A stretch of 1,703 bases of DNA from Escherichia coli (GTDB lineage: Bacteria > Pseudomonadota > Gammaproteobacteria > Enterobacterales > Enterobacteriaceae). Positions within the stretch are counted from its first letter, which is position 1. The number at the start of each line of letters is the position of its first letter. The stretch lies in assembly GCF_003334255.1 (NCBI RefSeq), contig NZ_QOWU01000152.1; one strand, 5' to 3'. This document shows, in pieces, positions 1-720 of this stretch. The notes under the pieces are model-generated. The model was not told the DNA's origin. It worked only from the letters and a program-made list of their open reading frames with translations, and did not search any database. Made by a program: the position numbers and the translations under genes.

Positions 1-157
1 GGAAACCGTCTGGGGAGAACCCCAGACCCCCATCGCTGTAACACCGACGGTCTACGACCACCAACCAGCCGAATAGCTGCCTGTACCGTGCAAATAGGCT
101 TTGCAGGGAGCTGACGCGGTTCCTAGCGACCTGAAAGCCCCTGGTTAGGGGTATCGG
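1..157. repeat. Left copy of terminal direct repeat (window begins inside it; true extent unknown)
   Basis: Positions 1-157 align without gaps to 1547-1703 (offset 1546), 151/157 identical. Mismatches at 78, 82, 100, 112, 142 and 145 are all T here versus A in the right copy. Confidence 0.95.
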
Positions 158-170
158 CGCGCCTGACCTC

Positions 171-263
171 CTGAGAGCCTCTGTAAGCGTTTTTCGCGCC
201 TTCCATGCCCTGGCGGGCATTTAAACCCGTTTCGTGCGTCTGAGAGCTTCTGAGCGTGTTTGA
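171..263. repeat. Imperfect direct repeat pair flanking a short hairpin
   Basis: CTGAGAGCCTCTG (171-183) and CTGAGAGCTTCTG (240-252) match 12/13, each followed by AGCGT and a T-run. Between them ATGCCC-TGGC-GGGCAT (205-220) forms a 6-bp stem with a 4-nt loop. Confidence 0.5.
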
Positions 264-300
264 AGGGCTATCTGACGACTCATCCCCGAAAGAACAACAA

Positions 301-334
301 CGGGATCACCGACAACATGCGAGAGGTGATCCCG
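301..334 (-). terminator. Candidate intrinsic terminator on the minus strand (10-bp GC-rich stem)
   Basis: CGGGATCACC (301-310) and GGTGATCCCG (325-334) are perfect reverse complements with a 14-nt loop. On the minus strand the stem is followed by TTGTTGTTCTTTC (complement of 288-300). The loop is longer than in a classic terminator, so confidence is low. Confidence 0.3.
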
Positions 335-456
335 CTCGCCGCAAGTCGATGACCGAGCGTAGCGAGCGAATCGACGAGGAAGCGGAAGAGAACCGGAAGT
401 TACATTGAGCACTTACGCACGGATGCAGGGTGTCGGGGTGAAGCCCTGACCAGGTG

Positions 457-503
457 GGGAATGTCTGAGTGCGCGTGCGCGGTCCGACATTCCCACATCC
501 TGT
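457..503 (+). other. Stem-loop followed by ATCCTG (candidate oriT-like nick region, MOBP-style)
   Basis: GGGAATGTC (457-465) pairs with GACATTCCC (486-494), a 9-bp stem with a 20-nt loop. It is followed after 2 nt by ATCCTG|T (497-503), resembling the YATCCTG|Y nick core that sits 3' of an inverted repeat in RP4-type oriT. A 6-mer match alone is weak; the arrangement is the evidence. Confidence 0.25.
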
Positions 504-690
504 CCCGATTTCTGAGGCGTTTTAACGGTGAACGGACGGCAAAAACATGATCGAGCTGTTGAACGTGGAGAGCGCGAAATCGGGCAAAATCATGGCTGAC
601 GAGGCTTGCAGAGGAGTAAGCCAGTATACACTCCGCTATCGCTACGTGACTGGGTCAGGGCTTCGCCCCGACACCCCAAAAGGGCGTTGC

Positions 691-702
691 GTTGCGCGCA
701 AC
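691..702. repeat. Perfect 12-bp palindrome GTTGCGCGCAAC
   Basis: Self-complementary sequence at 691-702, preceded by the tandem GCGTTGC GTTGCGC. Lies about 20 bp upstream of the T-rich tract. Confidence 0.7.
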
Positions 703-720
703 ACCCTTGCCTAGAATAGA

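Follow-up and report, generated by a model that had tools for sequence, protein, structure and literature searches.

Why should a plasmid that is among the smallest and commonest in Escherichia coli be GC-rich and free of genes over more than half its length? We addressed this question with a stretch of 1,703 nt from contig NZ_QOWU01000152.1 (hereafter the window), whose first lines are shown above. The answer that we reached accounts for both properties: we consider it likely that the gene-free DNA is a cassette of cis-acting sites that act as single-stranded or hairpin DNA, and not a set of RNA genes. From homology, the cassette appears to consist of three origins of transfer (oriTs) from other plasmid families, each lacking its relaxase gene, a homologue of the priming site ssiA, and approximately 330 nt of further conserved sequence.

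A single-gene plasmid with a GC-rich block

The window comprises a 1546-bp circular plasmid of the pKL1 family ("Col(MG828)") and a 157-nt terminal repeat. The replicon is 100% identical to deposited 1546-bp plasmids of E. coli and Klebsiella and approximately 95% identical to pKL1. None of the six T-to-A variants in the tail (Table 1) was found among the 631 plasmid records searched. This absence, together with the lack of a reverse transcriptase and the single target base, led us to reject a DGR-like reading of these changes.

The sole gene of the plasmid is repA (907-1383), which encodes a 158-aa HTH Rep protein. GC content is 57.8% in 1-720 and 57.7% in 1384-1546, compared with 43.4% in repA and 42.5% in 721-906. 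Joined across the junction of the circle, the GC-rich block spans 843 nt (1384-1546 joined to 1-680) at 58% GC, versus 43% in repA. A reading made earlier from the sequence alone (the sequence-only reading) had described 1-720, or about 1 kb, as GC-rich DNA with no credible ORF and with stops throughout the + strand of 1-540. The composition and the absence of genes were borne out, the longest ORF in 1-720 reaching at most 63 aa, as were the stops (10, 6 and 9 in the three frames). The extent was not, as the block is 843 nt long and runs across the circle junction.

One long frame had to be weighed before the block could be called gene-free. In 27 of 51 relatives, a minus-strand frame runs for 450 nt or more without a stop, and ORFs of 150 aa (relative L009) and 219 aa (relative L007) have been annotated there, in some relatives as 'hypothetical' or 'rep protein', so that the window might hold a pseudogene of a real protein. 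However, variable sites fall 30/39/27 at codon positions 1/2/3, and only 12 of the 75 variable codons are purely synonymous, against a random expectation of 26%. Single-nucleotide indels dominate (148 of 193), and neither the window nor its closest relatives have the frame intact. The product has a high content of Arg, Ala, Gly and Pro and no NCBIfam match. We regard a minus-strand protein as extremely improbable; the statement that there is no credible ORF holds for this frame too, since it fails the codon-position test. Annotators should not call genes from the long minus-strand ORFs of the block.

Table 1. Features of the window (positions are those of the whole stretch; oriT and ssiA assignments are predictions from homology)
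Feature	Position	Strand	Remarks
IncX4/R6K-type origin of transfer	1397..1457	+	GACAATC (1398-1404) / GATTGTC (1433-1439), then TATCCTGC (1440-1447)
Near-invariant left edge of cassette, including hairpin 8-27	1517..1577 (1517-1546 into 1-31)	+	homology edge
Unit of approximately 200 nt	28..225	+	2-3 copies in 24-35 kb T4SS plasmids
Most widely shared core: TCTGTAAGCGTTTTTCGCGCCTTCC and hairpin 205-220	154..228	+	found with ssiA-like segment, equal spacing
Two 22-nt direct repeats (171-192, 240-261) flanking hairpin 205-220	171..261	+	family D6, 77% identity, spacing 69 nt
Hairpin CGGGATCACC...GGTGATCCCG abutting ssiA-like segment	301..334	.	z -4.3; perfect stem lineage-specific
Homologue of ColE1 ssiA (n'-type primosome assembly site)	332..390	+	83% identical to ColE1 1309-1367
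R64/IncI-IncK-type origin of transfer (oriT_R64 family, 'oriT_pKL1')	428..511	+	homology upstream of nikA-nikB
24-nt element GGGTGTCGGGGTGAAGCCCTGACC, left arm of long-range inverted repeat	428..451	+	common to R64-type and ColE1-type oriTs
Inverted repeat of R64-type oriT (repeat B / repeat A, presumed NikA site)	457..494	+	dG -13.0, z -5.1
MOBP nick-region motif CATCCTGT	496..503	+	directly after inverted repeat 457-494
ColE1 bom-type origin of transfer	617..676	-	59/60 nt identical to ColE1 1462-1521 (98%)
Terminal redundancy of circle	1547..1703	+	copy of 1-157 with six T-to-A differences

Three candidate origins of transfer

The sequence-only reading had named transfer functions among its guesses, and homology favors that guess: three putative oriT sites match, respectively, sequence adjacent to nikA-nikB, the nic region of ColE1, and sequence adjacent to taxA-taxC of IncX4 plasmids. 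The first, the R64-type site, was matched in 2782 plasmid records, of which 1871 are conjugative, with 96-100% identity to IncK-type and approximately 78% to IncI1-type plasmids. Only 16-30 bp separate the match from nikA-nikB, which follow it downstream, in pECOED (IncK2/Z), pEK204 (IncI1) and pSZL31.1. The name oriT_pKL1 was given within the oriT_R64 family (bioRxiv 10.1101/2024.01.30.577996), and the site is already an oriTDB entry. Because this main site is catalogued, the block is an ordinary one and not a hidden RNA gene.

The window shares with the R64 (IncI1) oriT family the 24-nt left element, the invariant CACATCCTGTCCCG, and an inverted repeat of 17-18 bp that directly adjoins the nick region; in contrast to R64, it has neither nikA nor nikB in cis and would be wholly dependent on a helper. 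The left element is invariant in the alignment of R64-type relatives, is 96% complementary to 653-676 (inverted repeat I1), and matches ColE1 1498-1521 in inverted orientation. The nick-region motif is likewise invariant in all relatives, and the nick is predicted to fall after G502. The pattern YATCCTGY occurs only twice in the window (0.14 expected by chance), at the two predicted nick regions and each time directly 3' of an inverted repeat.

The sequence-only reading had named a lack of conserved structure or covariation across homologous elements among the findings that would count against it; covariation in the inverted repeat at 457-494 was strong. We found 22 distinct cores among 131 instances, every one of which folds; 96.3% of cells are paired, and 8 of 17 pairs have changed on both sides. 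The covariation score was 0.488, compared with 0.206 for shuffles (0/500) and at most 0.114 for slid controls, as expected of an inverted repeat kept by selection. The stem allele of the window is that of pECOED (IncK). Other family members carry IncI1-like or unmatched stem alleles between invariant oriT flanks, which suggests that the alleles may be helper-specific variants. Genomes with the same oriT allele have a median of 1 copy, and since most of them carry one copy, the helper is usually not co-resident. In two complete genomes, a small and a large plasmid share the allele; co-residence was found in some genomes only, not as a general rule.

The ColE1 bom-type site, of the MOB-HEN (MOBP5) class, is collinear with the ssiA-like segment, in the same order as in ColE1. 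Its predicted nick, CTGG|CTTA, falls between 621 and 620 of the minus strand. No cognate mob genes (mbeA-D or mobA-D) accompany it on the plasmid, whose only gene encodes the Rep protein; pKL1 is listed as 'mobilizable' by PLSDB/MOB-suite, yet its record has no relaxase type and only an HTH rep protein annotated. The plasmid resembles pBR322 in being bom+ mob-; mobilization from such a bom-only site would require mob genes in trans (compare pSe-Kan). It differs from ColE1 in lacking mbeA-D, so the predicted site can only work with mbe genes supplied in trans, and in replicating by a Rep-dependent instead of an RNA II-primed mechanism. The ssiA-nic spacing is also wider (285 nt versus 153 nt in ColE1), because the R64-type oriT is inserted between the two in inverted orientation.

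The third candidate is of the IncX4/R6K type. Positions 1415-1457 match the IncX4 plasmid CP134925 at 27670-27706, approximately 70 bp upstream of taxA-taxC, and again at 19460-19502. These two copies are inverted, and IncX4 records show two places each; duplication of the R6K-type oriT in IncX plasmids has been noted in the literature. The window shares with IncX4 the GACAATC...GATTGTC repeat followed by TATCCTGCATTG, with 87% identity over approximately 40-60 nt to both copies, and the segment folds with a z-score of -4.1. Unlike IncX4, the window has a single copy and no tax genes, and its inner hairpin differs in sequence while remaining self-complementary. The site lies outside 1-720, the part of the block that the sequence-only reading had dealt with.

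A putative priming site

The ssiA-like segment aligns over 59-60 nt with a stretch of ColE1 located between oriV and nic, and has the same strand and order as its ColE1 counterpart upstream of the ColE1-type nic; the shared blocks are CCGCTCGCCG...GACCGAGCG...CGAGGAAGCGGAA. ColE1 1309-1367 is taken to be ssiA, an n'-pas of the phiX174 type. On this basis, a second guess of the sequence-only reading, a single-strand initiation site, appears to be right for 332-390. The setting differs from that in ColE1: no RNA II origin lies upstream of the predicted site, which is approximately 340-420 nt from the Rep-dependent oriV, beyond two oriTs. The segment also occurs in IncX4 and Arsenophonus plasmids, and in every family member it accompanies the 154-228 core. 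In seven homologues, 4 of 14 predicted pairs are compensated, and TA to CG double changes are seen within the family at 346/374 and 350/370; the consensus energy is weak (-4.4 kcal/mol), and the fold has a z-score of -2.4. PMC3167613 sets out the role of ssiA and lends the identification of the ColE1 segment general support. In the abutting hairpin at 301-334, the outer three and inner five pairs are retained among 51 relatives, and the pairs 304/331 and 305/330 are paired in just 13-18.

Hairpins in DNA or in RNA

All six stem-loops named in the sequence-only reading are present where it had placed them, although two of them do not differ from chance. Against dinucleotide shuffles with DNA folding parameters, the z-scores, which are optimistic because segments were chosen by eye, were lowest for 457-494 (-5.1) and 301-334 (-4.3), followed by 10-25 (-3.1) and 205-220 (-2.2), with chance-level values for 658-668 (-1.8) and 138-151 (-1.5). 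An unbiased 100-nt sliding scan also found excess structure at 301-400, 401-550, 1351-1450 and the circular junction (1501-1600).

The sequence-only reading had suggested regulatory RNAs as one reason for this structure, for example in antisense replication control; such an RNA, transcribed from the block, might control repA or copy number. Antisense control is common among small plasmids, several of the stem-loops are stable, and one G-T/G-U wobble is tolerated in the IncX4 version of the 205-220 stem. However, Rfam searches at E up to 10 returned chance matches only, and a scan of the block for sigma-70-like promoters and intrinsic terminators found none, which leaves the suggestion unsupported. 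The block overlaps neither repA nor its leader, since 720-906 holds oriV and the repA promoter, and in other plasmids the same segments adjoin relaxase genes as oriTs. The cassette retains 81-95% identity among plasmids with Rep proteins that are 62% identical at most and unrelated at the other extreme, and it is kept even beside a ColE1-type RNA replicon (relative L013). We therefore consider regulatory RNAs very unlikely. The structures in the block are inverted repeats typical of the DNA sites of relaxases and primosomes.

A probable mobility cassette dependent on helper plasmids

What the sequences show are homologies, an architecture, covariation, and stem alleles that agree with helper type; from these we infer nicking, mobilization, priming and the underlying strand logic. 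A co-resident helper would supply the relaxosome: NikA/NikB, TaxA/TaxC, or MbeA-C, in which case a ColE1-like plasmid and a conjugative plasmid would both take part. An accessory protein would bind the inverted repeat and the relaxase would nick just 3' of it (ATCCTG|Y; in the ColE1-type site, CTGG|CTTA). The nicked strand would then be piloted through the type IV secretion system of the helper, with a hairpin at the trailing end for termination. The ssiA-like site is predicted to act on the + strand, the one that both MOBP-type oriTs would transfer. The site lies 110-170 nt 5' of the R64-type nick and would therefore be the last to enter the recipient, where it could load PriA-DnaB-DnaG for priming of the complementary strand. 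In vegetative replication, it could likewise serve to prime the lagging strand.

The sites could instead be inert fossils, that is, non-functional oriT- and ssi-like scraps left by past recombination or cointegration with IncI/K, IncX4 and ColE1-type plasmids, with GC-richness and hairpins inherited and unselected. The block is a mosaic in which homology breaks off sharply near 1517 and near 678, and a co-resident helper is, as noted, usually absent. Relative L011 lacks 434-515 and relatives L014 and L015 lack everything past approximately 420, and individual sites are therefore dispensable. In contrast, the nick motifs and protein-binding flanks are invariant over 50-130 instances, the stems covary with pairing kept, and the stem alleles are those of living helper plasmids. 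The non-coding block is also better conserved than the sole gene. Furthermore, pEC156, which has no mob genes and carries R64-type and F-type oriTs, was mobilized by R64 and F in experiment (PMC4743918), so a comparable R64-type oriT is functional. We judge the fossil reading unlikely, and favor functional sites.

The closest precedents are pEC156, pSe-Kan and pKPN2, members of the 'pOriT' class (the concept is described in PMC10123127). Like the window plasmid, these are small, enterobacterial and relaxase-less, carry more than one oriT family, and rely on relaxases in trans. They differ in being ColE1-type replicons of 4-7 kb, in which an F-type oriT is combined with one of the R64 or ColE type, whereas the window plasmid measures 1.5 kb, has a single gene, and carries three oriTs (IncX4, IncI/K and ColE1 types) but none of the F type. 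Because pOriT plasmids and mobilization by relaxases in trans have already been described, current concepts are unchanged. The three borrowed oriTs and the priming site probably let the plasmid hitch rides on helper plasmids. As the gene-free DNA is apparently hitch-hiking hardware, the spread of the plasmid would depend on IncI/K, IncX4 and ColE1-type helpers. The 'Col(MG828)' replicon label seems to follow the non-coding cassette and not the replication gene, which could mislead plasmid typing and mobility prediction.

Conserved sequence outside the named sites

Within the plasmid, conservation is highest in the approximately 330 nt at 1517-1546 joined to 1-300. Two elements of this stretch are found in other settings. 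The 154-228 core, with the ssiA-like segment, occurs in IncX4, where the iterons are approximately 200 bp away. It also precedes an MbeA-like relaxase operon in an Arsenophonus plasmid, and Sodalis pSG1 has it twice. The stem of hairpin 205-220 is compensated in relative L004 (ATGCCGC/GCGGCAT). The IncX4 homologue of 173-387 is in the replication region, 6 kb from taxA/taxC; therefore, not all of the block is oriT. The second element, the 28-225 unit, is present as 206-nt direct repeats that bracket ccdAB in L004, in three copies in L021 and in two in L019. In L021-type T4SS plasmids, its neighbors include a weak TraD-like match and a ColE2-type Replicase (PF03090), with no relaxase among the neighboring proteins examined or by MOB-suite typing.

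By eye, we saw no convincing match in 1517-300 to XerCD/cer cores, Tus-Ter, DnaA boxes, or MOBQ (GCGCC|CT) and F-type nick motifs. A reading of 154-331 as a degenerate ColE1 RNA/DNA-switch region was not adopted, as sequence upstream of 332 aligns only weakly with ColE1. We tentatively suggest, with more doubt than confidence, that the approximately 330 nt are a fourth, undescribed cis-acting site and that all 843 nt of the block form a portable 'mobility and priming cassette' that travels between unrelated replicons. The site could be (i) the oriT of the untyped family of 24-35 kb T4SS plasmids that carry the 28-225 unit; or (ii) a Rep-independent priming or replication-accessory module that is always linked to ssiA, as in IncX4, Arsenophonus and Sodalis. 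If the portable-cassette reading is true, the Col(MG828) typing label marks a cassette and not a replicon.

At the left edge, homology begins sharply at about 1514-1517 in all relatives, and the columns are nearly invariant in 51 sequences. The circular junction folds on the minus strand with a dG of -30.8 (z -5.5). The hairpin at 8-27 is the one that the sequence-only reading had given as 10-25.

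Origin-of-transfer homologues in the GC-rich block

We found homologues of three origins of transfer (oriT), of R64, ColE1 and IncX4/R6K type, in the GC-rich non-coding block, which takes up 843 of the circle's 1546 nt, from 1384 via the junction to about 680. The sequence-only reading had proposed regulatory RNAs, a single-strand initiation site or transfer functions. The oriT homologues speak for transfer functions and an ssiA-like segment for the initiation site; Rfam and promoter scans supported no RNA gene in the block, and regulatory RNA is left without support. That interpretation was therefore partly right. 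The feature is real, and its principal part is on record already: the R64-type site is known as oriT_pKL1, an oriT-database entry of the oriT_R64 family (bioRxiv 10.1101/2024.01.30.577996). Only mildly new are the three-oriT arrangement and a conserved core. Small mob-less plasmids with one or more oriTs, served by relaxases in trans, are a well-described type: pEC156, with R64-type and F-type oriTs, was mobilised experimentally (PMC4743918), pSe-Kan and pKPN2 likewise lack mob genes and bear oriTs, and pOriT plasmids have been described for E. coli (PMC10123127).

Features of the plasmid; hairpin z-scores are from dinucleotide shuffles with DNA parameters
Feature	Position	Strand	Sequence or fold	Remark
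Stop-free frame	1500-1546 joined to 1-430	-		in relatives, L007:499-1158(-), L009:131-583(-)
Hairpin	10-25		z -3.1	clearly above chance
Hairpin	138-151		z -1.5	
Core segment	154-228		TCTGTAAGCGTTTTTCGCGCCTTCC + hairpin 205-220	co-occurs with ssiA-like segment at fixed spacing
Hairpin	205-220		z -2.2	
Hairpin	301-334		z -4.3	clearly above chance
ssiA-like segment	332-390	+		
R64-type oriT	428-511			
Hairpin	457-494		z -5.1	clearly above chance
Stem, window and pECOED	457-494		GGGAATGTC / GACATTCCC	
Stem, pKL1			GTAATCGTAT / ATACGATTAC	
Stem, L008 (relative)			GCATTTGTC / GACAAATGC	
Stem, IncI1			GCAATTGTAAT / ATTACAATTGC	
ColE1-type oriT	676-617	-		
Hairpin	658-668		z -1.8	
Hairpin	678-712		GGGCGTTGCG...CGCAACACCC	directly past right edge of conserved cassette
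Near-perfect palindrome	774-821		two 23-nt repeats TGTCGCATCC.GG.TG.GACAAC; dG -18, z -6.7	AT-rich region upstream of repA
Rep, helix-turn-helix, 158 aa	907-1383	+		sole annotated gene in matching plasmid records
IncX4/R6K-type oriT	1397-1457			
Inverted repeat, then motif	1398-1404 / 1433-1439, then 1440-1447		GACAATC / GATTGTC, then TATCCTGC; fold z -4.1	

The block as a non-coding cassette

Positions 1547-1703 repeat 1-157, which makes the window a circle of 1546 bp with its first 157 positions appearing twice. E. coli and Klebsiella plasmids of 1546 bp match it at 100% identity, and pKL1 (NC_002145; length 1549 bp, type Col(MG828), 'mobilizable') at about 95%. The tail copy differs at head positions 78, 82, 100, 112, 142 and 145, always T to A; four of the six changes make CAG out of CTG. 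The tail version was absent from all 631 plasmid records, and only T82A was found in relatives (L007, L109). These differences probably arose in assembly or consensus calling, or else mark a private minor variant.

The GC-rich stretch is genuine, at 57.8% in 1-720 and 57.7% in 1384-1546 versus 43% in repA. The absence of a credible ORF also held: in 1-540 the three + strand frames contain 10, 6 and 9 stops, and ORFs within 1-720 are no longer than 63 aa. The minus strand lacks stops over at least 450 nt in 27 of 51 relatives, and some records annotate this frame as 'hypothetical' or 'rep protein'. We rejected it as a gene: variable sites are spread 30/39/27 over codon positions 1/2/3, purely synonymous changes account for 12 of 75 variable codons versus 26% expected, one-nucleotide indels predominate, and the product had no NCBIfam match. 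Base composition thus accounts for the frame, and the gene annotations placed on it are likely spurious.

Identity of the block is 81-95% across plasmids with Rep proteins that vary from 62% identity to no relationship, and in one ColE1-type RNA replicon (L013); in these sequence comparisons it behaves as a cassette. Every block-carrying plasmid compared (L007-L015 and the type plasmid pMG828-1) is typed Col(MG828), and pMG828-1 shares with the window only 1379-1546 and 1-682. The Col(MG828) typing marker thus probably lies in the non-coding block, not in a rep gene.

The pKL1 oriV, according to a secondary citation (PMC3832669), lies upstream of rep and has an IHF box, Rep sites and a perfect inverted repeat. 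Its counterpart here is the AT-rich 720-906, whose palindrome presumably serves as inverted repeat for Rep binding and as operator; this palindrome lies outside the block. Hairpin 678-712, common only to plasmids with the same rep cassette (pKL1, L006) and followed on the minus strand by TTTT, may act as a weak terminator between the oriTs and the oriV/repA region, insulating the former from the latter.

Three predicted sites of transfer

A sensitive search with 395-616 matched 2782 plasmid records (1871 conjugative), all via 428-511. This segment matches 16-30 bp upstream of nikA-nikB, the location of the I-complex oriT, in pECOED (IncK2/Z), pEK204 (IncI1) and pSZL31.1. In the alignment of R64-type sites, the left element GGGTGTCGGGG.GAAGCCCTGACCAG and the MOBP nick-region motif CACATCCTGTCCCG are invariant; we take the nick to follow CATCCTG, from the RP4 and R64 literature.

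Hairpin 457-494 sits between these two elements, and its stem is wholly different between lineages and self-complementary in all. Scanning metagenomes for the invariant flanks yielded 131 instances in 104 loci; their cores comprise 22 distinct sequences, every one of which folds. Among 18 variants 96.3% of cells pair, with both-side changes at 8 of 17 pairs; the covariation score is 0.488, versus 0.206 in shuffles (0 of 500 reach 0.488) and at most 0.114 in slid controls. Conserved structure with covariation, the test set by the sequence-only reading, is therefore found at this hairpin. All six hairpins that it named are present, but 138-151 and 658-668 are not above chance and 205-220 is marginal.

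The IncK-type allele, searched with 428-511, was present in 332 of the 5426 complete genomes of E. coli, with 367 of 368 places on plasmids. Co-resident small and large plasmids share it in STEC2018-553 (2.4 kb and 130 kb) and O111:H- strain 110512 (1546 bp and 119 kb).

Window 617-676 is identical to ColE1 1462-1521 at 59 of 60 positions. Read on the minus strand, it begins with a 24-nt element also present in the R64-type site, and the inverted repeat 428-451 / 653-676 exists because the two convergent oriTs share this element. Their predicted nicks are about 118 nt apart, the ColE1-type nick presumably falling between CTGG and CTTA. Since the plasmid has no mob genes, the ColE1-type site is bom-only, as in pBR322. 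Some metagenome contigs carry two convergent R64-type oriTs about 320 nt apart (L024, 942-1009+ and 1266-1333-; L028, L036, L057, L092, L102), resembling the window's R64-type/ColE1-type pair.

The third oriT lies beyond the region of the sequence-only reading. An IncX4 plasmid has two inverted copies matching its segment 1415-1457, one of which precedes taxA-taxC by about 70 bp; IncX4 records have two matching places each, in line with a published remark that R6K-type oriTs are duplicated (bioRxiv 10.1101/2024.01.30.577996). Judged by its motifs, the site has a canonical architecture. The window has two YATCCTGY sites in all, one in each of the R64-type and IncX4-type predicted nick regions, against a chance expectation of 0.14.

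The ssiA-like segment and the conserved core

The ssiA-like segment is 83% identical to ColE1 1309-1367, with strand and order relative to nic alike; we take this ColE1 segment to be ssiA from the pBR322 factor-Y site. In ColE1-type plasmids the RNA/DNA switch is followed directly by ssiA (n'-pas), where the PriA primosome is loaded for synthesis of the lagging strand (PMC3167613). IncX4 and Arsenophonus plasmids carry further homologues. The predicted fold has moderate support: in a set of 7 homologues, compensation is seen at 4 of its 14 pairs, and two TA-to-CG double changes fall inside the family. The adjoining hairpin 301-334 is perfect in the window's lineage only, most relatives having 2-3 central pairs open. 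The + strand, which carries this site, would be the strand transferred from both MOBP-type oriTs. Because the site lies 110-170 nt 5' of the R64-type nick, it would enter the recipient last, an ideal place to prime the complementary strand.

The most conserved part of the plasmid is 1517-1546 joined to 1-300, with a sharp left edge at about 1517. Its segment 154-228 accompanies the ssiA-like segment in three settings: IncX4, where it lies about 200 bp from iterons and DnaA boxes and 6 kb away from taxA/taxC; an Arsenophonus plasmid, where an MbeA-like relaxase operon lies downstream; and Sodalis pSG1, which has two copies. Unit 28-225 recurs in 2-3 copies (L004:3141-3346, 3997-4202; L021:7518-7692, 21516-21693, 22372-22549) in a family of 24-35 kb plasmids with a VirB-like T4SS, a ColE2-type Replicase and no recognisable relaxase. 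No relaxase was found beside these copies, whose neighbours include only a weak TraD-like match and the ColE2-type Replicase. The conserved stretch 1517-1546 joined to 1-300 is a candidate for a further oriT, or for a site accessory to replication or used in priming. A RepA gene precedes one copy of unit 28-225, and in one T4SS plasmid two direct copies flank a ccdAB toxin-antitoxin cassette, with the hairpin stem compensated.
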